From an uncultured Candidatus Saccharibacteria bacterium (GTDB lineage Bacteria > Patescibacteriota > Minisyncoccia > Phycocordibacterales > SBAW01), in NCBI GenBank assembly GCA_964650645.1, contig CAZYUH010000001.1, positions 79,373-143,372 on the forward strand: a DNA stretch of 64,000 nucleotides, given 5' to 3'. Every line of letters begins with the position of its first letter. Position 1 is the stretch's first letter. Positions 9,199 to 45,952 of this stretch are shown piece after piece. A program made the position numbers and the translations under genes. The notes under the pieces are model-generated. The model was not told the origin of the DNA. It was given only the letters and a program-made list of their open reading frames with translations, and searched no databases.

Positions 9199-9223
9199 CC
9201 TTTCAGCTATTAGCGGGCGTGCG

Positions 9224-9595: not shown

Positions 9596-9746
9596 ATGTT
9601 TGCGCGTAAATTATAAAAACTCCCGGCCGGACGCGCGAGCCCGAAGCCCGCGTACCGCCAAGTGTACCAGATGCGGGCACGCGCGCTATGGCGCGCAAAA
9701 CAAAAGACCGCCTTACCGCAGATACCCGATAAGGGGTCTTCTGCAG

Positions 9747-10565
9747 TTAGGCGGTTTGGAGCTGCTCGCGCTTGATCGGATACCACTCGAGTTCTGACTT
9801 CCAGAGGGAATACCTCTTTGGCCTTTCGGACACATCGAACCCCTTTCCGTGGGCGCACTGGCCGAACAAGTGGGATCCTTGCAGATCTACCAGCACTTCG
9901 CTGCTGGTTAGGTTTTCATCGGGAATGAGGCCGAGATGCACGTCCCATGGCATGAGGCGGTAATTGCGGGCAAATGCCTCCTCAATGCTTACCAGTTTGT
10001 GCTTATTGCATTCGAAATTTTCTGCAATACGCTCGTCCCACCACTGGAGATGCTTTTCCCACGCTTCACGCTCCCTACGCATTTGCTCTTCCGTATATTC
10101 CTGGTAACACGGGCGGCAATGATCGAGCTCTTCCTCAAGCGTGAGGAATGGGCCGATGAGTTCTTCGAATCTCCTGAATACCGGCAGAGGACACTCGATC
10201 GAGCGCCAACTATCGACATACGGGGTCCCTCCAGGCTGACGCTCATCATCCTTAAGGAAGAGTGCCTTGAAACAGTAATATCCGCGAGAAGCGCCGTGGC
10301 CGCTCCCATTATGGGTCTGCATATCGCAGAAGCGCACATCATGCCAGCCAAATCCTTCTTTTCGGCGGATACGGCTAATGACTTCTCGCGCGCAAAGCAC
10401 CAAGCTTTGCCCGTACTGGGGACTCGTGCTGAACACGCAGATCGGGCCAGGAATATGCGGGCCTCCGTCGTCGAAGATCGCATACTCCAGTTCGACGTCG
10501 TGGCCTGAATGCCCATCGTGATAGGCAAGATGCTTCAGATAAGGAAGTTCTGTTATCTGGTCCAT
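9747..10565 (-). CDS. hypothetical protein (His/Cys-rich), first gene of low-GC island
   Basis: 272 aa; HDGHSGHD, CRPCYQEY motifs; GC clearly lower than flanks. Confidence 0.5.
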   Translation of the reverse strand: MDQITELPYLKHLAYHDGHSGHDVELEYAIFDDGGPHIPGPICVFSTSPQYGQSLVLCAREVISRIRRKEGFGWHDVRFCDMQTHNGSGHGASRGYYCFKALFLKDDERQPGGTPYVDSWRSIECPLPVFRRFEELIGPFLTLEEELDHCRPCYQEYTEEQMRREREAWEKHLQWWDERIAENFECNKHKLVSIEEAFARNYRLMPWDVHLGLIPDENLTSSEVLVDLQGSHLFGQCAHGKGFDVSERPKRYSLWKSELEWYPIKREQLQTA

Positions 10566-10795
10566 CGGACCCTCCTGTTAGTTTGAGTGGATTATGAAAG
10601 AATAGTTCTGTTATAAATTATATACTATTTATATCTATTTGTCAAGTATCGAAAAAACAGGACGTTAAGCACCCGAAACGACGCCCCTGAAGTGCCTCCA
10701 GATCTCGACCATCGCCAGGGTGTCGAGCTTGCAGTACTCGAGCATGCCCTTAGAAATTATCCTCTTGCATCTGCAAGCAGACATTCAAAGCAACA

Positions 10796-14215: not shown

Positions 14216-14321
14216 ACCACCCCTGGGGCCATACGTAGTGCAAACAGTAGCGCCTAAGAGCCGCCAGGGCAATACACAAATCATGGACTACATAGTTAAT
14301 TGCGCAATTAGGCCGGCAGCC

Positions 14322-14615
14322 CTACCAACCCACGCTTGTTACCAATCCGATCGAGCCTAGTATGCCCGCAACGCGCTCGCAATCCGCTCTTATGCCGCGA
14401 TATACGACCGCGCTGCCGCTGGTGTGGACGATATTCGCCAGCTGCGCCGCAGCCGCGGCCGAACATCCCGTCGCCTTAATCAATTGGCCTATTACGTCGT
14501 CAAAGGTGTGGCACTCGCAATTAAAAAGGGTCGTCTTCCACCCGGCGACAGTTGCGCCAAAATCAAGCTCAATCTTAATGATATTTTCGACTTTAGGTTC
14601 CATTGTTACAACCAC
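14322..14615 (-). CDS. ClpS-like (N-end rule adaptor fold) protein with substituted degron-pocket residues
   Basis: Aligns with E. coli ClpS core (VILVNDDYTPMEFVIDVL...AVHYQGKAICGVF) as TTLFNCECHTFDDVIGQL...IVHTSGSAVVYRG; NDD replaced by NCE. Confidence 0.5.
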   Translation of the reverse strand: MVVTMEPKVENIIKIELDFGATVAGWKTTLFNCECHTFDDVIGQLIKATGCSAAAAAQLANIVHTSGSAVVYRGIRADCERVAGILGSIGLVTSVGW

Positions 14616-14627
14616 GTAGTTAAACAG

Positions 14628-15050
14628 CTATTTGCCCTTCAGCGCAATCGCGATCCGCTCGACGGACCTAACCGGCTTTTTCTTTACGTCGTGCTCCCAT
14701 ATCCTTACGACCTTCCAGCCGAGCTTTTTGAGCTTGGCGTTATTCCTGCGGTCGCGGCGCATATTCTCCTTGATTTTCGGGAGCCAGTATTTCTTTGGCA
14801 GCCTCTTGCCCTGGTTCTTGAACTTATACCCGTGCCAGAAGGCCCCGTCCATGAACACGGCAACCTTCTTGGACACGAACACGATATCCGGCCTCCCGGG
14901 GAGCTTGCGGTAATGGATCCTGTAGCGGTAGCCCTTCTTGTAGAGCGCGGCGCTCACCAGCTTCCGCAGGGCGATCTCGGGCTTGATATTCTTGGAGCGT
15001 ATGAGCGACATGATCTCGCTCCGCCTCTCCTTGGAAAAGATGTCGGCCAT
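14628..15050 (-). CDS. vsr: very short patch repair endonuclease Vsr
   Basis: MADIFSKERRSEIMSLIRSKN...VFMDGAFWHGY canonical Vsr motifs. Confidence 0.85.
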   Translation of the reverse strand: MADIFSKERRSEIMSLIRSKNIKPEIALRKLVSAALYKKGYRYRIHYRKLPGRPDIVFVSKKVAVFMDGAFWHGYKFKNQGKRLPKKYWLPKIKENMRRDRRNNAKLKKLGWKVVRIWEHDVKKKPVRSVERIAIALKGK

Positions 15051-15093
15051 CTCAAGCAAGCATACCCCGCCGGCCACACAAATGCCGCCAAAT

Positions 15094-15300
15094 CTATCTA
15101 AACAGGTCCCTGGTCGAAACTCCTAAAGATATTGCCAATTTCTCAATAGTTTGAAGAGTAATGTTTTTCTTACCGCACTCAATCCTGCTTACATAAGCCT
15201 TGTCTGCACCTAGAAGTTTCGCTAGGTCTTCTTGGGACAATCCCTTCTTAATTCTCAACTGCTTAATTGTGTACCCAAAACGGGAAAAAATGGTCTGCAT
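15094..15300 (-). CDS. XRE-family HTH regulator (R-M controller C-protein-like)
   Basis: 68 aa; LRIKKGLSQEDLAKLLGADKAYVSRIECGKKNITLQTIEKLAISLGV HTH_3. Confidence 0.8.
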   Translation of the reverse strand: MQTIFSRFGYTIKQLRIKKGLSQEDLAKLLGADKAYVSRIECGKKNITLQTIEKLAISLGVSTRDLFR

Positions 15301-15426
15301 CCTTATTCACACCATAAACCCTTTTTATTTGATAGCAAGTTGTATCATAATACAACTATAGCAAATTGGAGGCTTTTCGGAAGATTATTTTGCTTGATAG
15401 GCTGAGAAAGATATAATTTACACTCT

Positions 15427-16494
15427 ATGGCTTCTCTTAAAAATAAGAAACCAACAATCATAAGCCTCTTTGCAGGGGCTGGCGGACTAGATATCGGCAT
15501 GAAGCAAGCCGGATATCACGTTGCTGTTGCGCTAGATTTTGACCACGATAGCTGCGAAACCTTAAAGACCAATTTCAAGGACTCTGCAGTTATCGAAGGC
15601 GATATTACACAAGTATCGACTGAGCAAATCCTTGAAGCTGGAGGTTTAAAGGTCGGCGAAGTGGATCTTTTAATCGGAGGACCTCCATGCCAACCATTCT
15701 CAAAATCCGCATTTTGGAATGGTTCAAAGGGTTTAAAAGACCCCAGGGCCGTAACCCTTCATGAGTATGTTCGAGTCTTACGGGATACAAAGCCTAAGGC
15801 TTTTCTTTTGGAGAATGTGTTTGGTCTTCTATACAAAAACAACAGCGACGCATTTTCTTTTTTGCAGGACGAATTCGGAAAGCTGGGGTACGAAATTGTT
15901 TACAAGGTAGTTAATACTGCGGACTACGGAGTACCGCAAACCCGCCAACGCTTGATCATACTCGGATCCAGGAAAGGCAGACTAGCATTCCCTGAGCAGA
16001 CCCACCGCGACCCTTTGAAGGAAGAGGGGCTGACATTATTCGAGAAAAAATTACCGACCTACATTACAGCAAAAGAAGCATTTAAGGGATTGAGACACGA
16101 CTGGAAGGAAGTGCCGGCAGAATTAACTGTAAATGGAAAGTGGGGCCATTTATTGAAAGATATTCCACCCGGAGATAACTATCTTTTCTATACTGAGAAG
16201 AAGGGGCATCCAAATCCCCTATTCGAATGGCGCTCTCGCTATTGGACCTTCCTTCTGAAGTTAGATCCAAAAAGACCATCTTGGACCATCCAGGCTCAAC
16301 CGGGGCCTTACGTCGGGCCATTTCACTGGGACAATCGGAGAATGACTCTTGCGGAACGGAAAAGGATACAAACTTTCCCCGATAACTACATATTTGTTGG
16401 CAAGAGAGGTTCTGTGCAGAAGCAAATCGGCAATGCTGTCCCTTCAGAACTAGGGCGAGTTTTAGGCAAGGCGATTAAGGATCAATTATTTTAA
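15427..16494 (+). CDS. dcm: DNA (cytosine-5)-methyltransferase
   Basis: 355 aa; motif I FAGAGGLDIGM, motif IV GGPPCQPFS, motif VI ENVFGL. Confidence 0.9.
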   Translation: MASLKNKKPTIISLFAGAGGLDIGMKQAGYHVAVALDFDHDSCETLKTNFKDSAVIEGDITQVSTEQILEAGGLKVGEVDLLIGGPPCQPFSKSAFWNGSKGLKDPRAVTLHEYVRVLRDTKPKAFLLENVFGLLYKNNSDAFSFLQDEFGKLGYEIVYKVVNTADYGVPQTRQRLIILGSRKGRLAFPEQTHRDPLKEEGLTLFEKKLPTYITAKEAFKGLRHDWKEVPAELTVNGKWGHLLKDIPPGDNYLFYTEKKGHPNPLFEWRSRYWTFLLKLDPKRPSWTIQAQPGPYVGPFHWDNRRMTLAERKRIQTFPDNYIFVGKRGSVQKQIGNAVPSELGRVLGKAIKDQLF

Positions 16495-17157
16495 AGCTTT
16501 CTCACCTCGGCGAGGTATTCTTGCCCAGTGGTCATAAAATTCTTGCCGCGATTTGAATTCGCCACGCTCTTCGCGAATGCGGTCTATCTCCATTACCGCA
16601 CCAACGTAGTCTCGTGTAGCGCTAGAAGCCGTATGCGATGCGACTTTCCACGGCTCAACAACAAGAAGCTCAAAATTGCTTACCTTATTGGCTGCCGCAT
16701 CAACATCAAAAATGGCTATCAAATCTATATGATGCGTATAGTCGGCAAAGGGGCGAATAGTCTGTGGGAATTTCTTATCCTGATGCTTTAAGTAGGTCCC
16801 GAAGGAGTACAGGGTTATTCGAGACTGAGTACGGTTGGGATTACGACCACGTCTTGCCGCCTTAATATCGAGGGCGACCAACGCGTTCTTAAAATGCTCC
16901 CCCGTCAACTCCAAGTCCGGATAGTGGCGCATGCCACCTTCCGTTACGGACACGCTCTTCAGCTTATCCGTCTTACGCTTGAGATGAGCAATAAGGGCCC
17001 CTTCGATAATATTACCTAGTGTTCCAGGTTCAAGATCCAGGGGAATAATTTCTCCCGTACTAGTGGCAAAACCGATAATATCGAATACGAAGTCCGAGTA
17101 CATTTCACGCACCCACGCCTTCATTTCGTTCACATTGGCTTTTTTGAGACTTGCCAT
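16486..17157 (-). CDS. putative type II restriction endonuclease (PD-(D/E)xK), cognate of adjacent C5-MTase
   Basis: 223 aa; YPDLEL...ALDIK fits PD-x(n)-(D/E)xK; tail-to-tail 9-bp overlap with dcm; low GC. Confidence 0.5.
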   Translation of the reverse strand: MASLKKANVNEMKAWVREMYSDFVFDIIGFATSTGEIIPLDLEPGTLGNIIEGALIAHLKRKTDKLKSVSVTEGGMRHYPDLELTGEHFKNALVALDIKAARRGRNPNRTQSRITLYSFGTYLKHQDKKFPQTIRPFADYTHHIDLIAIFDVDAAANKVSNFELLVVEPWKVASHTASSATRDYVGAVMEIDRIREERGEFKSRQEFYDHWARIPRRGEKALK

Positions 17158-17343
17158 AATGCTATCCTACACCGGTATCTTATTTATTGACAGAGCTTAG
17201 ATTTTATACCACTATCTCAAAATTACACAGGTTATTACGTAATCGGAAATAAAAAAGCTGCCTCATAGCGCCCACAAGAGCCTCATGTTTATTAGGATTA
17301 TTGGCTGCAGATCCCTTTTGCAAAAGTAATTAAATATTAAAGC

Positions 17344-18900
17344 TTACGAAAAACTCAAACCAAACATATCCTGAAGCAGTTTCTCAACTATTGCCTTATA
17401 GTCTTCTACTTGCTGGTCGGTTACGTTTGGAGTTGCCCTGACATGATTTAAATCACATCTCAACTTGTAGTAATATTCTATTTTTTTTAATGTATTGGCA
17501 TCAATAGGTAGAGTCTTAATAACTTCTTTTTGCAAGTCGGATCTATTTTCAATTATTGCCTTAAACTTTGCCGCCCCCAATCCTTGCTCGTTTATTAAGT
17601 ACTCTTTATAAGCAATGTCGACGGTACTATCCAATACAATAAGGGCAATTCTATTCTTTTGACTAAAAGGGAACTTCGATATGAGGTCAGCGGCGATGAC
17701 ACTTTCCAGCAGCCCTGCACTCCAGGGCTTCTCGGCAACTATCAACTCATTCGCGCCGATGACTTTTTGATGCCATTTTTGCTTACTTGCCGGCGCTTTT
17801 GGTAAGTAGTTCTTTGGAATGCTAGTAATAGTGTCTAGCTTTTCTTCCAAAACCACGCCAGTTTTATAAGGAAAAACTTGAGTATCCCATTTACCCTGAA
17901 GACTCCTGGATACTTGAGCAAATTTTTTAGTCGCATCAATGACACTCTGTTGCAGAGCCTGGAAGATGGGATGCTTGGTATTAATGCCTGACTTACTACT
18001 GTCCCAAGGCATGTCGCGCGACTGCCCCTTTATTCTTACTATAGTACGCACCAGGGAAATATTGTAATGAGGATTGCCAACCATGCCCGCAGAAAAACCG
18101 ACCGAAAAGTCATTCAACCCTCGTGCAATCAACCTATTGTTACAGTATACAAATACCCCATAAGACTTATCCGGGTCGCCCGGATGGTCAATTAAACCTG
18201 CCAATATCTCAACGTCAACCTCTCTGCCCTCTATCGGTATCACTCCGGAGAACTTTGTAGGGAAAAGGCCGGGCGGATAAGACCATTGGTCATCAAAGTT
18301 TACGGCTTCTATTTTATCTCCATTGATTGTAATCATGGCGCCCCTGTCTAAAAATTTTGAATACACTTCCGATAGATGGACTTTTAAATTAGAAATCCCC
18401 TCCGGGGTCAGATGGACACGAAGCTTACTTAGTTCAATTAAGGTAGTGTACGGGCTGAGAGTGTTATGTGATTCCGCATAAGGGAGCTGCCAGCTTGGAT
18501 CATCTGTAATCCAGTGTTCGTCAAATTTCACTGTATAAGACTTTGCATTTTCATATCTAGAATGAATAGCGATATCCTGCGCTAAAGCAACAACCGCACG
18601 CTTACTGCCCACTCCAAAGTATCCAATTACACCATCACCAACATCGTTTGTTGTTTTGCCCGGACTAACAACATGGTCGAGTTTAGATTCTTCTATTCCT
18701 CCCGCATTGTCTTCTATTGATATAGTCTGCTGGTTTTCATCAATGGATATCTTTATCTCTAAATCAGCGCGCTTATTTTTTGACCAAAGATCAATAGCGT
18801 TATCGATAAGTTCGCATATTGCACGCTTCAAATCGTATTCTGAAATTATGGAAAGGAATATTCTTTTTTCAGGCGTAGCATCTAATATTTTCGGGTGCAT
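17344..18900 (-). CDS. MORC/MutL-like GHKL ATPase (HATPase_c_3) of unknown function
   Basis: 518 aa from MHPKIL; Bergerat N-box ELIDNAIDL, G1 box DNAGGI, G2 GYFGVGSK; remainder has no recognisable domain. Confidence 0.7.
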   Translation of the reverse strand: MHPKILDATPEKRIFLSIISEYDLKRAICELIDNAIDLWSKNKRADLEIKISIDENQQTISIEDNAGGIEESKLDHVVSPGKTTNDVGDGVIGYFGVGSKRAVVALAQDIAIHSRYENAKSYTVKFDEHWITDDPSWQLPYAESHNTLSPYTTLIELSKLRVHLTPEGISNLKVHLSEVYSKFLDRGAMITINGDKIEAVNFDDQWSYPPGLFPTKFSGVIPIEGREVDVEILAGLIDHPGDPDKSYGVFVYCNNRLIARGLNDFSVGFSAGMVGNPHYNISLVRTIVRIKGQSRDMPWDSSKSGINTKHPIFQALQQSVIDATKKFAQVSRSLQGKWDTQVFPYKTGVVLEEKLDTITSIPKNYLPKAPASKQKWHQKVIGANELIVAEKPWSAGLLESVIAADLISKFPFSQKNRIALIVLDSTVDIAYKEYLINEQGLGAAKFKAIIENRSDLQKEVIKTLPIDANTLKKIEYYYKLRCDLNHVRATPNVTDQQVEDYKAIVEKLLQDMFGLSFS

Positions 18901-18972
18901 ATATAAAACAAATCTTACGCACAAAGAATACGCCTTTTAAGGCTCTTTACAAGGCCTCAACAAAGCGACCCA

Positions 18973-19167
18973 TCATTTCCCCTTCCAGTCGCGGATTATG
19001 AGCTTTTTGTTCTTCAGGTCCACTTGCACGGTAAGCTTCTGCTTCTCCTTCCAGCCGAACTCCTTAATAGCCTCCATGGGGAGGCTTATCGAATAGCTCC
19101 TGCCCGCCACCTTGGTGATCTTGCGAACCGGCTTCGCGCTCAAACTCGCCTTGGGTCGTCCTGCCAT
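18973..19167 (-). CDS. AbrB/MazE/SpoVT-family DNA-binding protein
   Basis: 64 aa; SISLPMEAIKEFGW swapped-hairpin barrel signature. Confidence 0.55.
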   Translation of the reverse strand: MAGRPKASLSAKPVRKITKVAGRSYSISLPMEAIKEFGWKEKQKLTVQVDLKNKKLIIRDWKGK

Positions 19168-19277
19168 ACCGGCATTTTACACCCAGAATCGCGCAGCTAA
19201 TTGCGCAATTACCATCCCTTTCCTTCTTCTCCTCCCAGCCTCGCCCCTCTCCTCGCTTTCCCCGCCTCACCCCTCCC

Positions 19278-19307
19278 AATCTATTCTAGTGTTTTGCAAA
19301 ATTCCAG
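19278..19307. repeat. direct repeat copy 1 (GTGTTTTGCAAAATTCCAGAATAGATTT) containing inverted arms AATCTATTCT/AGAATAGATT
   Basis: Seen directly; identical 27-28 nt copy at 19580-19607. Confidence 0.8.
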
Positions 19308-19565
19308 AATAGATTTGCCGCGAGGCGTTATCTTATGCCGGACGCTGTTGCCATCGCTGCGCTTAAGGACCAACCCGGCAATGGCGAGCTTGCGGATATG
19401 GTCCGAGGCGTTGATATAGCCGATACGGAGCCGCTCGGACACCTCGGCAACCGAAAGCTCGGGACTGCGCTGCAATACGTCCAATATCTGCAGCCGGCGG
19501 TGGCTGGCCGCCCCTTTTATAACCCTCTCGATCTTCCTAAAATTCGCCTGCGCCATGGCCGGCAC
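19281..19565 (-). CDS. ArsR/MarR-like winged-HTH regulator
   Basis: 94 aa; RLQILDVLQRSPELSVAEVSERLRIGYINASDHIRKLAIAGLV. Confidence 0.65.
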   Translation of the reverse strand: MPAMAQANFRKIERVIKGAASHRRLQILDVLQRSPELSVAEVSERLRIGYINASDHIRKLAIAGLVLKRSDGNSVRHKITPRGKSILEFCKTLE

Positions 19566-19579
19566 TATACACCATGCTG

Positions 19580-19607
19580 GTGTTTTGCAAAATTCCAGAA
19601 TAGATTT
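19580..19607. repeat. direct repeat copy 2, in the promoter region of the ArsR-like gene
   Basis: Identical to 19280-19307. Confidence 0.8.
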
Positions 19608-19796
19608 TCTCCTTGGATGAATTGAGCCGCATACCTGCGTAGCTAATTGCTAATTAGCTACATACTATTGACACTTTTCGCTATACAGAGTAATTTGCTC
19701 TCCAGCAGTTCCCCTCTCCGTTGTGCGTTAGCAAACACCACCCGGCGCCCCGGTTACGGGGTATTGCTAAGCAATCCATCACAAATGGAGCGGGTT

Positions 19797-20210
19797 ATGG
19801 AAAACGTTAAAATTATCGCATCTGGCCTGCCTGACAGCACTGTTATCGGAGGCATTGAAAACAACAGCGGCAAAACCGAGGTTGAGAAAAATTACAGAGG
19901 GGTCAATGCAAGGAACCTCCCTGAGCTTTTCTCAAAAATCGGAGAGATTGAGGGTTACTTCGAAGCTCTGGCTACGCTCTGGTGCGATGGCGAGCTAACT
20001 CTTGTCATTGAGAAGGGTTCTCACTTTTTCTCGGGAGTCCTGACAACCTATGAGGATAATCTCATCGAGAGGACGGTCAAGATAATTGATCGTCTTGCAG
20101 TCGAATTGTCCCAAGCGAAATATGATGCTGATAGTTACAAAATAACCTACAAATTCTCGCGCGCGGTAGAGTTTAATGACTTGGTAAACGATATCATTCC
20201 CCGACACTAA
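19797..20210 (+). CDS. hypothetical protein
   Basis: Start at ATG 19797 preceded by GGAG 6 nt upstream; no recognisable domain; low GC. Confidence 0.4.
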   Translation: MENVKIIASGLPDSTVIGGIENNSGKTEVEKNYRGVNARNLPELFSKIGEIEGYFEALATLWCDGELTLVIEKGSHFFSGVLTTYEDNLIERTVKIIDRLAVELSQAKYDADSYKITYKFSRAVEFNDLVNDIIPRH

Positions 20211-20254: not shown

Positions 20255-20854
20255 TTATCGAGATCCGCTGCACGCGCCTGAAGCCCAGAGGCCGCGGCCC
20301 AGCAATCGGGCCTGCGCCTCTGCGGCCCTGAACTCCGCCTGGTACTTATAGGGCGCGCTGTAGGTGTACTCGTGCGCGTAGCCCTGCTCTACCAGGTATT
20401 CGTTTACCGGCAGGCCGTCGCTGCGGTACACGTACGCGAGCAAGCGGCCGTATTTGTCGCGCTCGCCTTGCGAGGGGTCCTTTTCAAGCATTACGCGCTG
20501 GCCCGCCAGAAGCTCTTTCGTCTTGTCGGAGGCCTCCTTGCCGAAGCACTGCACCGCCTTGCGCGGGTCAACCGTCTCGGGCGTGTCGATGCCTATGAAC
20601 CGGACGGTTTCCGTTTTGCCTTCAATGCTTACGGAAACAGTATCGCCGTCCACTACCCTTATGACGGCGTACGTGCCGCTAGCGGCGGGCGGTATTGTTG
20701 ACGCTTGAGTGCTCGTCGCAACAGGCGTCTGCGGCTGCTCGTGCGGAGCCGCAGGAGCGGGAGCGTCGGGCGAAAAGAACCCCGCAAGCGCGAGCAGCAT
20801 AAAAATGCTCATCACTGCAACTGCAGTCCATCGCGCTCGTTTGCCCATGCACAC
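20255..20854 (-). CDS. secreted thermonuclease (staphylococcal nuclease homologue)
   Basis: Signal/TM then VIRVVDGDT...IGIDTPE...DKYGRLLAYVY SNase motifs. Confidence 0.85.
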   Translation of the reverse strand: MCMGKRARWTAVAVMSIFMLLALAGFFSPDAPAPAAPHEQPQTPVATSTQASTIPPAASGTYAVIRVVDGDTVSVSIEGKTETVRFIGIDTPETVDPRKAVQCFGKEASDKTKELLAGQRVMLEKDPSQGERDKYGRLLAYVYRSDGLPVNEYLVEQGYAHEYTYSAPYKYQAEFRAAEAQARLLGRGLWASGACSGSR

Positions 20855-38302: not shown

Positions 38303-38527
38303 GTACTCTCCCGTGCTTTTCTATAGGAAATGTAGTGCGCCGCGCGGAAAAAGTCGAGCCGACCGCCGGAGCCGCGCACCCGTCCCGCGTGTTCAAGCTG
38401 ATAATTTTTAGGGACTGATCATGCCACCATTCGAGCCTTGCAAGGCAAAAGCCCCGCACTGTTTCCAGCGCGGGGCCAAGGGACAAGGCTCCAAGAGATA
38501 AATTGGCCGGGATTCAAAGCACCAAGT

Positions 38528-39121
38528 TCAACTTGCCAACACAGCCGCGGGGTAGTCGCCGCACCAGTCCCAGGAGAGCAAGTTGAAGCCCCAGTCCCAC
38601 ATGATGCCGTTCCAGTGCAGGTAGCGGACGCACAGGCTGCCATAGCGGAGGGGGTTGTAGACCGTCCCCCAGAAGAAGATGCTGTAGCGAGTATTCCCCG
38701 CCTTGTCCGCCTTCCAATCGTCAGGGATGAGGTTGGGGTTGGCCAGCAGATAGTCGAGGACGTTCGCGTTCAGCACAGGCTCGTCGGCCAGCCGCTGACG
38801 GAGCTTATCGCCCACAATGTAGCTGCCGCGCTTCTGGCTGTCGTCGAGATAGAGCTCGATTTGCGACGGGTCGAAGGTGAACTGGCCGTCCCGCTTGTGC
38901 TCTTCGACCGTCCAGCCTGCAATCACGAAGGGATCGGCGTCGCAGTCGATGACGATGGCGCCTGCGTCCTGCCCCTTGATGAGCTTGGCGACCCCTGCCT
39001 TCACGCGGCCCGACGACTTGCGGAACCGCTTGAGATGGTCCCGCCCCACGCCCAAACAGTCGAGGACTTCGAGAGTGGCCGTAATTTCGGAATACGGCGT
39101 TTCAGTAATCAGGCTCCCCAT
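38528..39121 (-). CDS. hypothetical protein (Trp-rich C-terminus)
   Basis: 197 aa ORF. Confidence 0.45.
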   Translation of the reverse strand: MGSLITETPYSEITATLEVLDCLGVGRDHLKRFRKSSGRVKAGVAKLIKGQDAGAIVIDCDADPFVIAGWTVEEHKRDGQFTFDPSQIELYLDDSQKRGSYIVGDKLRQRLADEPVLNANVLDYLLANPNLIPDDWKADKAGNTRYSIFFWGTVYNPLRYGSLCVRYLHWNGIMWDWGFNLLSWDWCGDYPAAVLAS

Positions 39122-39406
39122 TTCGGGTCTCCTTGTTTCTATACGCCAGCAGGCTCACCAAAGAATTCGGTTCGCCATAGCGGGAAACGGCCTTATGCAA
39201 GCCTCTTTCCGCTATGGCGAACGCAGGTGGCACATTAAAGAACTCCCCGCTACTATGCTACGCAATAGGGATATTTGTCAAACCATACCGCTGCCAATCG
39301 GAACTGAGCCCGAAAGCCCCAGACAGCGCGCTTCGCGCAGCAAATATCTTACCTTGAAGGATTTTCGGTTCCTTCAGTCGGAGGCTTTTCCATTTCCCCT
39401 GCCTGC

Positions 39407-40270
39407 TTATTCGATGGAATCCTCTCTGTAGCTTCCCAATACCTTGACCTCTTTTGCGATTCTCCTCAGGTCGTCTATCGCATGCTGCACGTCAGGGTCT
39501 TCGATTGAGCCTTCGAAGTCGAGATAGAAAAGGTAATGCCAGGGCGATTTCGGCACGGGGCGCGATTCGATTTTCGTAAGGTTTATGTTCCTGGAAGCAA
39601 AGCAGCCGAGCGCGGAGTATAAAAATCCGGTCACATCGCCGCCGGAAAATACCACGGAAGTCTTATGCGCACGCTCGCCGGACTGCTCAAAAGCAGGAGC
39701 CTTTTTGGCGATAATCAAAAAGCGCGTGTAATTTTGCAAATCATCCTGCATATCAGGCCGCAATACTTCTAGCCCGTGGATATTCGCCGCCTTTGCGCTT
39801 GCAATGGCCGCCTTTGACGGGTCATCCTGCTTCTTGATGAATCCGCAGGAAGCCGCCGTGTCGAAATACTCGACAAGCTTCGCCTGCGGCAGTTTCTGGT
39901 GAAGCGTATGCTGGCACTGGGCAAGCGCCTGCCAATGCGAATACACTTCGCGGATATCCGCGATATTCGCCCCTGGCAGGCCGATCAACTGGTGGCTCAC
40001 GTGAAGGTACGCCTCGCCTATGACCGCGAGATCATGCTGCGCGAGCAGGTCGAAATTGCGGTACACCGAGCCTGCCAGGGAGTTCTCGATCGGGACGATG
40101 CCGTATGCGAACTCGCCGCTGTCGGTCTTCTCGAACACCGTGTCGAAATCCTCGCAGCCCCGCAATACGGCCCGCTCGAGAGGCAGGCCGTTCTGGGCGA
40201 GGAATTTCTCAGCCGCCATTTCGCTGTATGATCCGGGAACGCCCTGGTAGCCGATTGTAAATTGTTCCAT
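39407..40270 (-). CDS. pheA: prephenate dehydratase (PDT + ACT domains)
   Basis: IGYQGVPGSYSE, TRF, ESRP motifs; start at MEQFT. Confidence 0.85.
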   Translation of the reverse strand: MEQFTIGYQGVPGSYSEMAAEKFLAQNGLPLERAVLRGCEDFDTVFEKTDSGEFAYGIVPIENSLAGSVYRNFDLLAQHDLAVIGEAYLHVSHQLIGLPGANIADIREVYSHWQALAQCQHTLHQKLPQAKLVEYFDTAASCGFIKKQDDPSKAAIASAKAANIHGLEVLRPDMQDDLQNYTRFLIIAKKAPAFEQSGERAHKTSVVFSGGDVTGFLYSALGCFASRNINLTKIESRPVPKSPWHYLFYLDFEGSIEDPDVQHAIDDLRRIAKEVKVLGSYREDSIE

Positions 40271-40317
40271 ATCCTGGCTATTGTACCGTTTTGAGTGCCA
40301 CCGGCTAAGCAGCATTA

Positions 40318-40430
40318 CGCTGCGCTACATGCTGGCCGTCTCGTGTTAGAACCGTGGTCGGTCAAGCCCCGCTTAGTCCGATTGGCTTCCTTTTAGCTTA
40401 TCAAAACGACGCGTCTCGTGCGCCTAGTTA
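40318..40430. repeat. att-like repeat A: tRNA-3'-end-like segment (GCTGGCCGTCTCGTGTTAGAACC) + TCAAGCCCCGCTTAGTCCG + CGACGCGTCTCGTGCGC
   Basis: Shares blocks with repeats at 43251-43375 and 43985-44060 and with the 3' end of tRNA-Gln. Confidence 0.6.
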
Positions 40431-40777
40431 TGGTCAGGACAACCACTCTTCGTGTAGCTTTCGTATGTCGCCCATGTAATCGGGGCAACTCCGCTAATTG
40501 ATTTCTTGATGAAATCTAAGTCCTCAGGGGTTAGCTCTTCCTCCTTTTCATAAGGCCCCCATTCAGCCATTTTCTCAATTAAATGTGAGACAAAGTAGGA
40601 CGTTTTTGAACCGTAAGTGCTAGATAGCTTTAAATTGCAGGAGAAATTATTTGAATGGGTCAGCACCACTGCGAGAGGTGCTTCCTCGGGGCCAGAGATA
40701 AAAACAATCGGGTGATAGGCCTCGGCGAAGCTTCTCTTTTTGCCGATTAATATGTCTCCTTCTTGAAAATTATTCAT
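40424..40777 (-). CDS. hypothetical protein (low GC)
   Basis: 117 aa ORF. Confidence 0.45.
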   Translation of the reverse strand: MNNFQEGDILIGKKRSFAEAYHPIVFISGPEEAPLAVVLTHSNNFSCNLKLSSTYGSKTSYFVSHLIEKMAEWGPYEKEEELTPEDLDFIKKSISGVAPITWATYESYTKSGCPDHN

Positions 40778-40815
40778 ATTTAAAAAGTGACAAAAGTGAC
40801 ACTTTTTACCAAAAA

Positions 40816-41847
40816 CTAGAACTGAACAAAAATCTGCTTATGATCCGAATCAATCCTTATTTGATTACCATAAGGCATTGGTATTTGCGGTTCGGTGTGC
40901 CCAAAGTCCATATTCTGCACAATAGGTATTTCCTTGTTATACGCTCGTACTGTTTTAACTATTACTTCTTGCTGTTCTTTCCGATAGGCATCTCGCTCTT
41001 CTGGATTTCGAAGCTTATCAAATTCACGAGCCTTAGCTCGTCCAACAACTACTCCTTTGATTCGTTCAAGGATGCCTCGTTCTCCAAACGCCCTAAAGAC
41101 TCGATTTACATAGTCAGCCGAAGGTATTTCTTCAGAAGTTTCCATCATGAGTACAATATTCTCAAATTGTTCTAGCGACGGAATCTGTACTCCGTGTCGT
41201 AACATTTCGTCAACTGACTCTACACAACCACCCCAGAGCAAGCCCTCACCATTTTTATTACCATCCCAAGACCAACCTGCATTTGGCTCATATTCACGTT
41301 CTTTGTCTAATTGAGTTTTGTCACCCCAATCCAGTCCAAGATCATTGAAGGACTCGCTGGGTAGTAGCTCAAATTCACCATCATCAAACAGAGCATGCTT
41401 TATGTACTTAACCGTGTACGGATTCATTTCTTTTTGATGTGCAAATTGTGTAAATAACGCCGCTCCGTAAAAGGATGGAGTTCCATTTAAAAAAAGAAAA
41501 TTAGCAAAGTGAGAATTGTCGCTAAAGCCAAAGAAAGGTTTTGGATTATTTGCAAATGGTTCACTTGGTAGGTTTTTAACATAGGTCACCTGAATATCCC
41601 CACCAAGCGTTGAAATGACAGCTTTTATATTTGGGTCAGAGAAAGCAGCGATTAGATCGTTAGCTTTCTCTTCCAGAGTAGCGTCTAACTTTGCTGTGGC
41701 AGGGTATTCTATCGGCTCAAGCTCAAAGATCTCTCGAAGACGTTTTAAACCAAGTTCGTGTACATGCGGCCAAACAGCAGAAGCAGCGAAGCTTGGTGAA
41801 ATGATTGCTACCTTGTCTCCTTTTTTTAGTTTCGATAACTCTTTCAT
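40816..41847 (-). CDS. S66 family LD-carboxypeptidase (LdcA/MccF-like)
   Basis: LKKGDKVAIISPS N-terminal nucleophile region and overall S66 pattern. Confidence 0.8.
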   Translation of the reverse strand: MKELSKLKKGDKVAIISPSFAASAVWPHVHELGLKRLREIFELEPIEYPATAKLDATLEEKANDLIAAFSDPNIKAVISTLGGDIQVTYVKNLPSEPFANNPKPFFGFSDNSHFANFLFLNGTPSFYGAALFTQFAHQKEMNPYTVKYIKHALFDDGEFELLPSESFNDLGLDWGDKTQLDKEREYEPNAGWSWDGNKNGEGLLWGGCVESVDEMLRHGVQIPSLEQFENIVLMMETSEEIPSADYVNRVFRAFGERGILERIKGVVVGRAKAREFDKLRNPEERDAYRKEQQEVIVKTVRAYNKEIPIVQNMDFGHTEPQIPMPYGNQIRIDSDHKQIFVQF

Positions 41848-41851
41848 AGAT

Positions 41852-42424
41852 TTAAAAATTTACTCTGCTCTTGATTAAATCAAACATCTTTTGATACCCC
41901 TGAGCATTTGGATGAAGTCCGTCAGCAAGGTCTGAGGTAGTATCCAAAACATCAAACATATCAATGAATTGGAAGCCGTGCTTGTCAGCTGTATCTTTCA
42001 TGACTGTATTGTATTTCTGAATTTCATCATTGAGAAAACGACTGCCCTTTGCCGAACGCCACTCGTCATTAACCTTGGTTGCACCGATGACGGTGATTTT
42101 GTTGGTAAAAGCTTTTGCTTGTGTGATGAGTTCTTCAAGGTTCTTCTGATAGTTAGTCAAAGGGACCTTATTAACATCAGACTCGTTCGGGTACTTTGAG
42201 TCATTGATACCGATAGCAAAAATTATATCTGACGGCTCTATCACTCCCGCTTCGATACTGAATCTTTTCAAAAGGTCTTCGCTAGTCTCGCCACATACAC
42301 CAAAGTTGTATAGATGACCGTAATCATCTGAAGATAGTGTTTTTCGTAGTCTTCCAGCCCAGCCCAAAGCTTCGCTATCGCAAGAGCCAAAAGTGATACT
42401 GTCTCCCCATACGCCGATTGTCAT
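41852..42424 (-). CDS. SGNH/GDSL hydrolase
   Basis: GDSIT block I, GIND block, DGLHPN block V. Confidence 0.85.
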   Translation of the reverse strand: MTIGVWGDSITFGSCDSEALGWAGRLRKTLSSDDYGHLYNFGVCGETSEDLLKRFSIEAGVIEPSDIIFAIGINDSKYPNESDVNKVPLTNYQKNLEELITQAKAFTNKITVIGATKVNDEWRSAKGSRFLNDEIQKYNTVMKDTADKHGFQFIDMFDVLDTTSDLADGLHPNAQGYQKMFDLIKSRVNF

Positions 42425-42876
42425 AATTAGATTATATCAAAATTACTTCAATCTCGTTGTCTCTTATAAAAATGATACTTTTTGACGATTTTCCTGATCG
42501 ACAATGTGTGAAATATAGAACTATATGGCGATAAATAAGTCGACTTTCCGACAATTTCATTTCGCAGTGCGATATCCACTCTCCAACGAGAACGACGGAT
42601 GTATAATGCAAGTACAAAAGGATCTACACAGCGGGTGACCTCTTAAATGACGGCCTGCGTATCTCTCGAAAGGATACGTGGGCCTTTTGCTTATTACCTA
42701 AGCAAAAACACAATGGAACAACTACAGTGGCATAACGAAGAACGAAAGGTCGATGACCTCCTTCCTCACGGGAAGAGCCCACGCAAAATCTCCAAGGAGC
42801 AGATGGCGAACCTCAAGAAGAGCCTTAGAATCTCCGAGGATATATTTACCTAAAGTTGTTTGATAAAGCACCTTTT

Positions 42877-43197
42877 TCATATGACTTCAATTGGATACAC
42901 ATCGGTTGCTGGCTCTTCGTATGGATGTGCGTCTCGAATCGCTTTTAGAACATCCTGAAGCTTGTCTTGTGAGCAAACTGTCTCAATACGCTCTTCAAGA
43001 ACCTCTTCGATTTTACCCACAGACCCGATTGTAGGATTCGCACCCTCCTCCGGTTTAAAACGACCTACACCTTTGAGAGTGAACGTGCAGTGGGAGTAGT
43101 TACCAATCTTTCCAGCACCAGCGTTACCCATAGCTTCACGCAATTTATCCGCATGGGATTCTGGGACATATACGACTATTTTGTAACGCTTTTCCAT
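42877..43197 (-). CDS. small PII/CutA-like protein resembling the Nif3 (YqfO) insert domain
   Basis: GNYSHCTFTLKGVGRFKPEEGANPTIG...HPYEEPATDVY. Confidence 0.4.
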   Translation of the reverse strand: MEKRYKIVVYVPESHADKLREAMGNAGAGKIGNYSHCTFTLKGVGRFKPEEGANPTIGSVGKIEEVLEERIETVCSQDKLQDVLKAIRDAHPYEEPATDVYPIEVI

Positions 43198-43250
43198 GGC
43201 TTTAATTGTATCGCGTTTGGAACAAAACCGCCTCAGCGGCGGTTTTGTTC

Positions 43251-43375
43251 ATCGACGCGTCTCGTGCGCGATAACCTCGCACGACTTGGCTGGCCGTCTC
43301 GGGTTCGAACTTTTCTGCATCAAGCCCTGCTTAGTCCGTTTAGCGGGTTTTCAAGTTGGAAACCGACGCGTCTTG
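43251..43375. repeat. att-like repeat B: hairpin CGTGCGCG...CGCACGA + tRNA-3'-end-like GGCTGGCCGTCTCGGGTTCGAAC + TCAAGCCCTGCTTAGTCCG
   Basis: Seen directly; homologous to repeats A and C. Confidence 0.6.
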
Positions 43376-43380
43376 TGATA

Positions 43381-43421
43381 TTGACAAAACTATATAAACC
43401 TGTATAATACTACAAGTAGTA
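43381..43421 (+). promoter_or_regulatory. sigma70-type promoter TTGACA-16nt-TATAAT followed by perfect palindrome TACTAC-AA-GTAGTA at the predicted TSS
   Basis: Consensus hexamers seen directly; 48 nt upstream of RBS AGGAGG and the 43469 start. Confidence 0.55.
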
Positions 43422-43468
43422 TTTCTGTTCCCACCATTTCCAGCCAGCCCTAAGGAGGGGCATATACC

Positions 43469-43846
43469 ATGACCAAGACTTCCCGTGATGTCCTCAGCCA
43501 GCTTGGCATTCTTTCCGCCGCCGTGGCCCTAATGTTCTGCGTCGCGGCACTCAACGCCAAGTCGTTGCCGCAGGCGGTCGTCACCGAATCCGGCATCGAG
43601 AACGCAATGATCGCCGAACCGGGCGCCATCCGCGACGGCCTGCCCGTCGGCGTCTCGCTCGCTCGATACAGCGTCACGACCGGCAAGGTGGTTACCATCT
43701 ATGGCAAGCCGATCACGACCTTCTGCAAGAGCGCCGGCTTCCCGAGCCACCAGATCCGTTGTCGAGATACCGCGTCGCCGTTCGACCTAAACGTCGCCGG
43801 TACGCAGCAGGCTGTCCGTCTCGGTCCCTGGTATACAGCCTCCTGA
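43469..43846 (+). CDS. small secreted/membrane-anchored protein, unknown function
   Basis: 125 aa; AGGAGG RBS; N-terminal hydrophobic segment. Confidence 0.55.
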   Translation: MTKTSRDVLSQLGILSAAVALMFCVAALNAKSLPQAVVTESGIENAMIAEPGAIRDGLPVGVSLARYSVTTGKVVTIYGKPITTFCKSAGFPSHQIRCRDTASPFDLNVAGTQQAVRLGPWYTAS

Positions 43847-43984
43847 CCGAGGACTCAAACGAACCCCGCCCGGACGTGATTTATTTCACGGCCGGGCGGT
43901 TCTTCTTTATTGCTTATGTTTCAGGTCTATATTTACATTCTATCGCTTTCAGCAATTTTGCTAAGCGATGCGTTTCGGGCGCTC

Positions 43985-44060
43985 AAGACCCGTAGGTGTC
44001 TCGTGCGCCAGAACCTCGCACGAATTGGCTGCCAGACTAGGATTCGGTCAAGAACATTTT
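43985..44060. repeat. att-like repeat C: hairpin + GGCTGCCAGACTAGGATTCG (exact duplicate of tRNA-Gln 3' end)
   Basis: 19-nt identity with 44204-44222. Confidence 0.65.
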
Positions 44061-44204
44061 TCTGCGCCGTCGCTTGAAAAATTTCTCGACCCTGCCGCCG
44101 CGACCCGGCCCGCTGGCCGGGTGCCCGCGGCCGCTTTCGAATCCCAGCGCGGCAGAAAAACAACATGCCCGCGGAGGCATGCTCCGCGAGCATTTGTTTT
44201 TTTG

Positions 44205-44275
44205 CTGCCAGACTAGGATTCGAACCTAGATAAACGGATTCAGAGTCCGTTGTCCTACCATTAGACGATCTGGCA
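44205..44275 (-). tRNA. tRNA-Gln (anticodon CUG), CCA not encoded
   Basis: Manual fold: acceptor UGCCAGA/UCUGGCA (U1-A72, G73), D stem GUCU, anticodon stem ACGGA/UCCGU loop CUCUGAA, T arm CUAGG-UUCGAAU-CCUAG. Confidence 0.8.
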
Positions 44276-44311
44276 ATACCCAGCCACGATAGCAAAAAAC
44301 GGCCGTTTTCG

Positions 44312-45952
44312 CTAGGCGACCTGGCGCTCGTTCGCCGCTTTTACAAAAGCCATAAAAAGCGGGTGCGGGGACAGCGGGCGCGAGAGGAATTCGGGGTGGA
44401 ACTGCGTCGCTAGCATGAACGGGTGGTCGGCTTTCGGGAGCTCGGCGATCTCGCACAGATTATGCTCGGGATTCATGCCGCTGAACACAAGCCCCGCCGC
44501 CGCGAGCCGCTCGACGTACTCGGGGTTCACTTCGTAGCGGTGGCGGTGGCGCTCCTTTATTTCCGCCTTGCCGTACGCCTCGCGGGCGATGGTGCCGTCC
44601 TTGAGCGCGCAGGCGTAGGAGCCCAGGCGCATCGTGCCGCCGTAATCGCCCTTGGCCAGCATGTCCTTCTGCCCCGGCATGATGTCGATGAGCACGTGCG
44701 GCGCGTCCTTGTCTATCTCGGCGGTGTTGGCGCCCTCGAGCCCCGCCTTGTGGCGCGCGTACTCGACCACCATGAGCTGCATGCCGTAGCACAGGCCGAA
44801 GTACGGGATGCGGTTCTCGCGGGCGTACCGCGCCGCCGCGATGATGCCCTCGACGCCGCGCGTGCCGAATCCGCCCGGCACGAGTATCCCGTTGTAGCCC
44901 GAAAGCTCCTTGAGCTTTTCGGGATCCTTCTCGTATTCCTCCGAGTCGAGGTACGAAAGCTCTATCTTCGCGCCGTTGTGGTAGCCGGCGGCCTTGACGG
45001 CCTCCAGCACGGAAATATAGGAATCGGCCAGCACGTAGTCGCCCGTCTCGAAGTACTTGCCCACTACGGCCACTTTGAGCGTTTTTGACGCGCCCTGCGC
45101 CAAGGCGCAGAACGCCTCCCACTCGCTCAAGTCGGTGGGACGCTTGTCGAGCCCCAGCACGTCGCACAGTATGTCGCCCATGCCGTCTTTCTCGTAATTG
45201 AGCGGCACGTCGTAAATGCTCTTTACGTCGGGGGCCGAGATGACGCGCTCGGGGCTCACGTTGCAGAAGGTGGCTATCTTCTCCTTGCGCTTGTCATCCA
45301 AAGGCACCGCCGCGCGCGCCAATATGACGTCGGCCTGCACGCCGGTGGAGTTGAGCTCGCGGCTGGCGTGCTGGGTGGGCTTCGTCTTCATCTCGCCGAT
45401 ATTGCCCGGGATGGGCACGTAGGACAGCAGTACCACGGCGACGTCAGCAGGGTGCATCTGGCGCAGCATGCGCGCCGATTCTATGAACAGGATGTTCTCG
45501 TACTCGCCCACCGTGCCGCCCACCTCGATAATGGAGACGTCCGCGCCCGCGGTAGCCTGCGCCTCCTTGATGCGGCGTATGACCTCCAAAGGGACGTCGG
45601 GCACCACCTGCACGTTGCGGCCCTTGTACTCCAAGTTGCGCTCGCGGCGTATCACCTCCTGGTACACGCGGCCGGTCGTCATGTAGTTGACGCTCGGCAG
45701 GGTTTCGTCCAGGAAGCGCTCGTAGTTGCCCATATCCTGGTCGGTCTCGTAGCCGTCCTCCATGACAAACACCTCGCCGTGCTCGGTCGGGTTCATCGTG
45801 CCGGCGTCGACGTTTATGTACGGGTCAATTTTAAGCGCGGTGACCCTGTAGCCCTTTGACTTGAGTATCCGCCCTATTGAAGAGGTAGCGATCCCTTTCC
45901 CTATCCCCGACATCACGCCCCCGACCACGAAGATATACTTGGGATTCGCCAT
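44312..45952 (-). CDS. pyrG: CTP synthase
   Basis: 546 aa from MANPKYIFVVGGVMSGIGKGI; GATase C-terminus GLCYGMQ; long upstream ORF extension rejected. Confidence 0.9.
   Translation of the reverse strand: MANPKYIFVVGGVMSGIGKGIATSSIGRILKSKGYRVTALKIDPYINVDAGTMNPTEHGEVFVMEDGYETDQDMGNYERFLDETLPSVNYMTTGRVYQEVIRRERNLEYKGRNVQVVPDVPLEVIRRIKEAQATAGADVSIIEVGGTVGEYENILFIESARMLRQMHPADVAVVLLSYVPIPGNIGEMKTKPTQHASRELNSTGVQADVILARAAVPLDDKRKEKIATFCNVSPERVISAPDVKSIYDVPLNYEKDGMGDILCDVLGLDKRPTDLSEWEAFCALAQGASKTLKVAVVGKYFETGDYVLADSYISVLEAVKAAGYHNGAKIELSYLDSEEYEKDPEKLKELSGYNGILVPGGFGTRGVEGIIAAARYARENRIPYFGLCYGMQLMVVEYARHKAGLEGANTAEIDKDAPHVLIDIMPGQKDMLAKGDYGGTMRLGSYACALKDGTIAREAYGKAEIKERHRHRYEVNPEYVERLAAAGLVFSGMNPEHNLCEIAELPKADHPFMLATQFHPEFLSRPLSPHPLFMAFVKAANERQVA

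Follow-up and report, generated by a model that had tools for sequence, protein, structure and literature searches.

The closest described counterparts of the locus reported here, a putative composite islet lying downstream of tRNA-Gln(CTG) in 64,000 nucleotides of contig CAZYUH010000001.1 (the whole of this 64-kb stretch being referred to as the window) from an uncultured bacterium of the candidate phyla radiation (CPR), are the tycheposons of Prochlorococcus. In tycheposon islands, successive integrations at a tRNA site push older elements inward, partial tRNA copies part neighbouring elements and degenerate remnants without an integrase persist; tyrosine recombinases are dominant, with large serine recombinases (LSRs) in the minority (Hackl et al.; bioRxiv 10.1101/2020.12.28.424599). 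The window locus shares with tycheposons a streamlined genome, integration at a tRNA gene, stacking, partial tRNA copies as separators and the presence of remnants. It differs in that two of its three separators are composed of a mimic of the tRNA 3' end, termed X, together with a hairpin, termed S, rather than of copies of the resident tRNA. Its host is a member of the CPR and the recombinases of its relatives are LSRs. Since it possesses neither a recombinase nor a replication module, the locus is not a tycheposon.

Accretion through tandem site-specific integration is likewise characteristic of the streptococcal integrative and conjugative elements (ICEs) and cis-mobilisable elements (CIMEs). 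Like CIMEs, as these are generally understood, the window units have no recombination genes, possess bounds resembling attachment (att) sites, are stacked at an integration site and could be mobilisable in trans; unlike ICEs and CIMEs, they are not accompanied by conjugation genes, their att-like ends belong to another, tRNA-mimicking family, and there is no autonomous partner in the window. Relatives of the window units resemble LSR prophages in carrying an LSR gene at a tRNA or X, TerL, an S24 repressor and a ParB-methylase, of which the window keeps a stump, whereas the window copy is 2.8 kb in length, without an integrase or structural genes, and is associated with direct repeats of 17-19 bp. 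Integron arrays and clusters of attC sites lacking integron integrases (CALINs) also exhibit co-oriented open reading frames (ORFs), repeated units of approximately 100-135 nt, short direct repeats at borders and no integrase nearby, but X is conserved by sequence, the attC core motifs and folded hairpin are missing and the arrays are anchored at tRNA 3' ends. Of the features of tRNA-targeted, att-flanked islands, the locus displays insertion at an intact tRNA, strain polymorphism and atypical GC content, although there is no integrase gene inside. With the LSR elements of Parcubacteria it has in common the ParB-methylase fragment, a TGTCAC motif and the X terminus, but no LSR gene.

The segment 40331-44203 probably arose as three units without a recombinase were inserted in a stack, each a member or remnant of an element family that targets tRNA-Gln and tRNA-Ser and whose distal ends mimic the tRNA 3' end. 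This reading is based upon observed modules, their distribution, their junctions and the polymorphism between strains. What is new relative to accretion at tRNA islands is the conserved module of tRNA-end mimic and hairpin; no paper on X/S modules was found in a limited search of open-access literature text.

Repeats of the islet and variation between strains

The islet is flanked by pheA and tRNA-Gln(CTG), the latter situated directly after pyrG. The CTP synthase (PyrG) of the window is at most 77% identical to its counterparts in Candidatus Adlerbacteria and Paceibacteria. Read in the orientation of the tRNA, the order of components is tRNA, insert E, 19-nt copy-CCA-S (module A), cargo 2, X(B)-CCA-S (module B), cargo 1, X(C) and pheA, with the 3' end of X(C) adjoining the upstream region of pheA (Table 1).

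A preliminary description of the locus had placed tRNA-Gln(CUG) at 44205-44275, which was confirmed on the minus strand (44204/5-44275), and had listed three partial copies of its 3' end. One of these is genuine: an exact repeat of the final 19 nt of the tRNA lies at 44028-44046, rather than at 44024-44042 as first given (two matches against none expected from 100 shuffles). The copy runs on into CCA and a hairpin with a 7-bp stem, the live tRNA gene into AAAAAAAC instead. The more diverged copies, at ~43298 and ~40333, are real repeats but not tRNA copies, being conserved mimics of the X type. The motif GCTGGCCGTCTCG.GTT.GAAC is present at 40331-40352 and 43289-43310 (none expected), TCAAGCCCYGCTTAGTCCG at 40362 and 43320, and the hairpin CTCGTGCGC-N-GCGCACGA at about 43261-43284 and 44000-44023; each of these three motif types has two copies and none elsewhere in the 64 kb, with 0-0.03 expected. 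Hairpin and TCAAGCCC block do not accompany every repeat, as had been supposed: both are found at the middle copy (B), whereas the proximal copy (A) lacks the block and the distal copy (C) combines the block with just the 3' half of the hairpin.

The first inventory of repeats was incomplete, omitting an inverted arm that resembles the tRNA 3' end at 44136-44155 and an exact 17-bp direct repeat, CGACGCGTCTCGTGCGC, at 40407-40423 and 43253-43269, which brackets cargo 1. The low GC content attributed to the cargo was upheld, at 41.7% across 40424-43252 against 60-63% in the flanks. The 17-bp repeat is present because the cargo has a full S on one side and the S 3' half (S_R) again on the other. 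The borders of cargo 2 are weaker S_R copies of 76-82% identity. Both cargo units carry X at their far ends, where only GTTC.A and ...CAGC are common to the resident tRNA, and the far boundary of E is the exact 19-nt repeat of the tRNA 3' segment.

Comparison loci and contigs are given L-numbers, of which L009-L088 are the pyrG loci of 80 Parcubacteria species. Two Joint Genome Institute (JGI) contigs, L089 and L091, encode a PyrG protein identical to that of the window, and their DNA is 99.2% and 99.0% identical to it from 49.8 and 51.8 kb, respectively, down to 44204, the last base of the tRNA. Neither contains any island gene, X unit or insert E. A pheA allele with only 81% nucleotide identity to that of the window begins 7 nt after the tRNA, followed by a GNAT gene of 124 aa, 56 nt duplicated from part of a Fic gene and a 100-nt relic of the pheA promoter and 5' end. 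This insert (5636-7200 in L089, 7642-9205 in L091) is the counterpart of 38367-44203 in the window; L089 rejoins the window at 38366 with 98.4% identity and L091 at the same point with a patchy identity of 88-92%. Its structure indicates that the older pheA was replaced and deleted. As identity ends at the tRNA 3' end and the inserts differ, the site is a strain-level hotspot with the tRNA 3' end as its fixed edge. An empty tRNA-Gln site in related genomes had been proposed as a check; the two contigs are indeed free of the island and their identity ends at 44204, but in their haplotype the site has a different occupant and is not in a pristine, empty state.

Additional strain-level junctions were located in L098, inside E; in L096, in the 5' arm of S (S_L); and in L097, right after S(B), where the contig parts from the window as soon as the proximal 17-bp repeat copy ends. 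Logan contigs of the same strain all carry the island and none an empty site; assemblies break inside modules C and B, those of L005 and L008 at 40332-40361. The whole layout of the window islet is mirrored in L011, with tRNA, E, tRNA-end copy, CCA and S, 4.3 kb of cargo and X. Among L009-L088, tRNA-Gln(CTG) is mostly kept downstream of pyrG at a distance of 47 bp to 8.9 kb, in an orientation that varies and is inverted in about a dozen genomes. This variation in distance and orientation suggests recurrent insertion and inversion at tRNA-Gln across the class.

The X terminus, hairpin S and associated recombinase genes

Repeats B and C both belong to X, a conserved unit of ~95 nt with the consensus GCGCaCGAGACGCGTCG, ~45 nt, GCTTGACCGACCACGGTTCTAnCnCGAGACGGCCAGC and often then CA. 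Its last ~24 nt are like the T-loop and acceptor 3' strand of a tRNA, the A72 and G73 being those of tRNA-Gln; X units of a second class end in CCGC, like tRNA-Ser, and the remainder of X is not tRNA-like. Decay from tRNA genes was rejected as an origin of B and C, which lack the T-stem 5' and acceptor 5' strands and whose upstream part is conserved across genomes rather than decaying. X was recovered from 89 metagenome stretches, on contigs of 35-56% GC, using a degenerate X-core pattern, and is also present in Parcubacteria loci L011, L075, L079, L103 and L111. A sequence-only model of X (R1), the training set of which included both window copies, detected only these two in the 64 kb, both in the island, and found new copies downstream of tRNA-Gln in L079 and L021. 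X(C) is 87-92% identical to the X of L136, L149, L154 and L174, and X(B) 80% identical over 129 nt to the X and S of L149.

An interpretation of X as a structured RNA was rejected: it has no Rfam match, RNAalifold yielded a hairpin of only 4 pairs, and folding was at the level of shuffled sequence (z = +0.8 and +1.0). When 40250-44300 was scanned against Rfam 15, tRNA alone exceeded its threshold, all other matches having E >= 0.96, far under gathering scores. X was also considered as an attP of known viruses; patterns for X, the TCAAGCCC block and the B core gave no real match in IMG/VR, where two CGGACTAAGC.GGGCTTGA matches proved to be an ordinary terminator hairpin between genes.

In pairs of loci such as L148/L173 and L131/L148, the upstream DNA is 99-100% identical and X 95-100% identical, while the DNA after ...CGAGACCGCCCGC is unrelated. 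The joining of identical X and upstream DNA to unrelated DNA exactly at the X 3' end identifies X as the right terminus of a mobile element family. A same-strand tRNA lies no more than 3 kb upstream of X in 18 loci (17 distinct) and downstream in two. Of the upstream tRNAs, 11 are Gln and 5 are Ser (4 distinct), with a single Trp and a single Phe/Arg; the gap to the X core is 74 nt to 2.8 kb.

Hairpin S reads (CCA)AGTCGTGC-TAGGTTATC-GCGCACGAGAC-GCGTCG and is a conserved module of tRNA-Gln/Ser and X contexts. It occurs as a trailer after 8 of 79 tRNA-Gln/Ser genes and after none of 121 others (72 Thr, 30 Met and 19 Asp); because of this restriction to Gln and Ser tRNAs, a role as a general tRNA trailer or terminator was rejected. 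S also follows X units, giving tRNA-S-X-S-X chains, and X-(CCA-S)-ORF-X arrays with ORFs co-oriented with X are present in L115, L121, L132 and L139. The 5' end of X is S_R, and in L157 the tRNA, S and X are contiguous and free of cargo. S(B) is 92% identical to the native tRNA-Gln trailer of L078, the context of tRNA end, CCA and hairpin is found also after the live tRNA-Gln of an Adlerbacteria metagenome-assembled genome (L010), and the S region of module A has homologous blocks of 70-110 nt in L136, L147, L149, L159 and L188. CCA is present in the partial copy at 44026-44046 and in X(B), is missing from the live tRNA-Gln gene, and is encoded too by S-followed tRNA-Gln/Ser genes of other genomes; its source may be the element end rather than the host gene.

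Insert E, present as a single copy in the window, has inverted arms and folds as a terminator-like hairpin and a long stem between the inverted arm and the 19-nt copy (-106.4 kcal/mol, z = -9.5). The same layout after tRNA-Gln was observed in L011, L085 and L141, the last of which has an identical E after the tRNA and after an X unit.

Clustering of ORFs from X loci revealed an LSR (Resolvase, Recombinase and Zn_ribbon_recom domains) that recurs upstream of X, as do an S24 LexA/CI-like repressor, TerL and a ParB-N/N6-N4 methylase; two more families lie just ahead of a GTGTCACTTTTGTCACTTTTT motif adjoining X. L167 contains a 12.8-kb element with the LSR gene against the 3' end of tRNA-Ser and X at the far end. 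The left-end sequence of this element adjoins the X 3' end in L145 and L170, so that tRNA and X ends look interchangeable as targets. In L082, at the syntenic pyrG-tRNA-Gln locus, the tRNA 3' end adjoins an LSR gene, with no direct repeat of the tRNA end within 9 kb beyond the LSR. The side of the LSR gene facing the tRNA or X 3' end in related loci is its own 3' (stop-codon) end. The LSR family is very abundant in Patescibacteria, with more than 6000 relatives at E <= 1e-20 among 8000 candidates scored. A search for tyrosine recombinase motifs yielded none in the window and a single Xer-like match in the 80 pyrG loci. LSR ORF calls were also seen to overrun the antisense strand of the adjacent tRNA (513-2351 in L167, 12288-13832 in L082 and many database LSRs of 500-630 aa), a spurious C-terminal extension that itself marks an LSR gene abutting a tRNA 3' end.

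Proposed mechanism and rival explanations

Under the explanation proposed here, the islet would be a composite of repeated site-specific insertions at the 3' end of tRNA-Gln(CTG), the inserted units being non-autonomous members or remnants of integrative elements widespread in Parcubacteria. The element end away from the tRNA would imitate the tRNA 3' end, either as X (...GCTTGACCGACCACGGTTCTAnCnCGAGACGGCCAGC, often with CCA) or as a literal 19-nt copy, and because of this mimicry each insertion would regenerate the landing site and allow tandem pile-up. Cargo sits between a complete S and a second S_R, in cargo 1 as an exact 17-bp direct repeat, and cargo-free S-X units such as that of L157 may be deletion products between two S_R copies. 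Cargo 1 is, on this reading, a decayed relative of temperate-phage-like LSR elements that has kept operator-like TGTCAC repeats beside the X end and a 39-codon ParB-methylase stump, its present load being an MccF/LdcA-like S66 peptidase and an SGNH hydrolase. An LSR acting in trans is the leading candidate for the enzyme responsible, an attribution that can be made only tentatively; it would have been supplied in trans or since lost. The core of the preliminary description, serial integration at a tRNA by a recombinase that was lost or supplied in trans, is thereby retained, with one true tRNA copy and two X units in place of three decayed tRNA scars.

It is possible, if somewhat doubtful, that X-terminated elements constitute a previously undescribed gene-capture or integration system of CPR bacteria and Parcubacteria, of which the window island is one array. 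Mobile units ranging from ~125 nt (S-X alone) to ~14 kb (LSR phage-like) would then enter tRNA-Gln/Ser 3' ends, each bringing its own tRNA-end mimic as the next landing pad and so building cassette-like arrays.

A number of observations weigh against serial insertion. Neither the island nor the remainder of the window, 64 kb of a genome of roughly 754 kb being the extent of the search, contains a tyrosine-recombinase motif, a serine-recombinase motif or an LSR homologue (tblastn); island ORFs have no integrase-type Pfam domain and 40316-44275 encodes no recombinase, primase or helicase, in agreement with the earlier statement that an integrase is lacking. The different insert and deletion in L089/L091 mean that the variable segment reaches 38367, past X(C), and in the contigs compared there was neither an excised or circular form nor a site that was truly empty. 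Most X loci have neither a tRNA nor a recombinase in the available DNA, and a search of 2.9 million IMG/VR viral contigs gave no X. Intrinsic terminators follow many X units, so X might also be transcribed. LSRs normally require just a 2-bp overlap, which leaves the 17- and 19-bp direct repeats unexplained by such enzymes.

X and S might alternatively be host-encoded, for instance as a tRNA-like small RNA gene and a tRNA trailer or terminator, with exchange proceeding through homologous or homology-facilitated recombination at tRNA, S and X anchors and no dedicated recombinase. The terminators just mentioned and a promoter-like motif before many X units are in keeping with this, as is the lack of a recombinase in the window; X, at 80-92% identity across genomes, is long enough to act as an anchor, and the 81%-identical pheA allele resembles an allelic replacement. 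Nevertheless, X exhibits no conserved structure or unusual stability and matches no Rfam family, the identity between loci ends exactly at its 3' end beside unrelated flanks, it accompanies LSRs and phage-like genes across hosts whose GC content spans 35-56%, and S is missing from the 121 Thr, Met and Asp tRNAs. This alternative as a whole is considered unlikely. An integron-like cassette platform, in which X and S together are attC-like, an undiscovered integrase acts downstream of tRNA-Gln/Ser and the window is a CALIN-like cluster, appears quite unlikely. It would account for the ORF-X-ORF-X arrays of co-oriented ORFs with stop codons against X, the 15-17-bp S_R direct repeats flanking cargo, the palindromic GACGCGTC in both S_R copies, by which the unit can close into a stem, and the want of an integrase nearby. 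However, attC sites are conserved in structure and X in sequence: single-strand DNA folding of X is at the shuffled level, X with S reaches only z = -2, and the variants GGTTCTAAC, GGTTCTAGC and GGTTCTTGC in an alignment of 70 X units leave no conserved RYYYAAC/GTTRRRY core. The recombinases seen near X are serine recombinases, whereas no IntI-type tyrosine recombinase is present in the window or the 80 pyrG loci (the metagenome X loci were not scanned); cargo 1, moreover, is multi-gene and cargo 2 inverted.

The preliminary description had itself raised the possibility that the repeats are a dispersed family akin to miniature inverted-repeat transposable elements (MITEs). On such a reading they would lie near the tRNA by coincidence and be unrelated to the arrival of low-GC genes. 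Dispersal was borne out, given the 89 metagenome stretches, most of them without a tRNA in the fetched DNA, and E has inverted arms and two copies in L141. Yet X is an oriented terminus linked to tRNA-Gln/Ser rather than a random MITE: 18 loci have the tRNA upstream, which is Gln or Ser in 16, and 2 have it downstream; X lacks terminal inverted repeats, its only two copies in 64 kb are both in the island and the low-GC block is bracketed exactly by module sequences. Such a coincidence is considered very improbable, and stacked insertion of tRNA-targeting elements is preferred.

Cargo, neighbouring genes and implications

Table 1. Features of the islet and its flanks, listed from the pyrG side. 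Positions are those of the window.
Feature	Position	Strand	Remarks
pyrG	44312-45952		CTP synthase
Intact tRNA-Gln(CTG), anchor and target	44204..44275	-	ARAGORN; Rfam tRNA 67.3 bits; 3' end 44204, no CCA encoded
Insert E, 157 nt	44047..44203	-	terminator-like hairpin 44165-44193; inverted tRNA-3'-end-like arm 44136-44155 (+ strand)
Module A core	44026..44046	-	exact 19-nt tRNA-Gln 3'-end copy 44028-44046, then CCA 44026-44028
Hairpin S of module A	43966..44023	-	hairpin 44001-44023; two S_R-like copies 43992-44008, 43966-43982
Conserved CTTAGCAA...GAAGCGAT hairpin beside module A	43942-43969	-	
Cargo 2	43381..43899	+	promoter 43381-43408; 125-aa ORF 43469-43846; terminator-like hairpin 43866-43899
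X(B), diverged X terminus	43287..43380	-	end ...GAGACGGCCAGC + CCA (43287-43289); R1 54.9 bits at 43285-43390
Hairpin S of module B, left junction of cargo 1	43253..43286	-	hairpin 43262-43284; proximal 17-bp repeat copy 43253-43269
Cargo 1, 2829 bp	40424..43252	-	41.7% GC
Cargo 1, terminator hairpin	43220-43250		first in tRNA orientation
Cargo 1, 106-aa ORF	42877-43197		follows the terminator hairpin
Cargo 1, ParB-N/methylase 5' fragment	42713-42829	+	first 39 codons
Cargo 1, SGNH hydrolase	41852-42424		
Cargo 1, S66 (MccF/LdcA-like) peptidase	40816-41847		
Cargo 1, GTGTCACTTTTGTCAC (TGTCAC) motif	40785-40802		
Cargo 1, 117-aa ORF	40424-40777		
X(C), near-consensus X terminus	40331..40423	-	5' end = distal 17-bp repeat copy; 3' end ...GAGACGGCCAGC; R1 85.8 bits at 40327-40431
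Remaining strain-variable segment	38367..40315	-	197-aa ORF 38528-39121 and pheA; GC 56.7%
pheA, prephenate dehydratase	39407-40315	-	likely start 40270; PDT and ACT domains (Pfam)

The S66 and SGNH/GDSL domains named in the preliminary description were both recovered by Pfam. A small protein of cargo 1 that had been called Nif3-insert-like was not substantiated, the 106-aa product giving only sub-threshold CutA1/P-II matches in Pfam. No match was found for the 117-, 125- and 197-aa proteins (the 125-aa protein being compared with Pfam, NCBIfam and PHROG). The ParB-N/methylase fragment matches the ParB-methylases of LSR elements with a hidden Markov model E value of 4e-12 and a phmmer E value of 1.6e-14, and lies on the strand opposite to X, the same relative orientation as in intact LSR elements. 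Around the TGTCAC motif, ~17 loci match the window at 93-100% identity over 22-33 nt, and the motif adjoins X in those that were inspected.

The sequence TGTCACTTTT occurs twice beside X (760-850 of L130; 40785-40810 of the window) and is found with its inverse, AAAAGTGACA, upstream of an LSR gene, an arrangement that would fit operator half-sites recognised by a repressor encoded in the element. In module B, the complement of the TGTCACTTTT motif coincides in part with the -35 box of the 125-aa gene, which has the consensus sequence TTGACA. An S24 peptidase (LexA/CI-like) gene at 1902-2270, on the minus strand of the window, has a product 33% identical to the repressor of X-terminated elements and is probably the host LexA.

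The S66 peptidase has more than 100 homologues at 68-100% amino acid identity, the majority above 80%, in unrelated contexts. Its gene lies ~300 bp downstream of tRNA-Ser in L103/L105 and L111, after a partial copy of the tRNA 3' end; in L044 it follows tRNA-Gln at a distance of ~200 bp. The sequence before the gene (7400-8000 in L103, 7160-7920 in L111) contains partial direct copies of the tRNA-Ser 3' end, one of 19 nt being exact in L103, as well as partial tRNA 5' copies and palindromic T-loop-like sequences; these arrangements look like further tRNA-linked landings of the same cargo gene.

Cargo 2 has a TTGACA-N17-TATAAT promoter and a 125-aa ORF of 63% GC with an N-terminal hydrophobic segment, and is present on short contigs of other strains beside different neighbours. 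A TACAAT -10-like box lies 7-10 nt before the ATG of the 106-aa gene (43205-43219), pheA (40271-40290) and a cassette gene of L139 (1700-1735), with the shared form GCGATACAATTA.A...ATG, which suggests that these genes may produce leaderless or very short-leader mRNAs.

A second low-GC region of the window, at 9000-20000 (39-53% GC), is a restriction-modification and defence island without an integrase or X or S motif. It includes a 1162-aa nuclease-helicase (10796-14284; PD-(D/E)XK, RNase_H_2 and AAA_11/12 domains), a C5 cytosine methylase (15427-16494) with an EcoRV-like endonuclease (16486-17157), a GHKL/HATPase_c_3 protein (17344-18924) and an SNase-like nuclease (20255-20854).

The genomes of CPR bacteria are very small, few mobile elements have been described in them and their exchange of accessory genes is poorly understood. 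The locus is a case of strain-level gene turnover at a tRNA gene. The window copy itself is an ordinary decayed island, and the X/S family is the more interesting part: the pair of end modules marks similar turnover in many Parcubacteria, from solo units of 125 nt to LSR elements of ~13 kb. If the proposed model is true, X and S would offer a sequence handle by which integrated elements could be recognised in fragmentary CPR bins, together with the cargo and the boundaries of each, as well as a defined candidate att site for a very abundant serine integrase family of Patescibacteria. Should X-terminated elements indeed form a gene-capture system, their arrays would shuttle accessory genes, such as that of the MccF-like S66 peptidase, between genomes of very different GC content.

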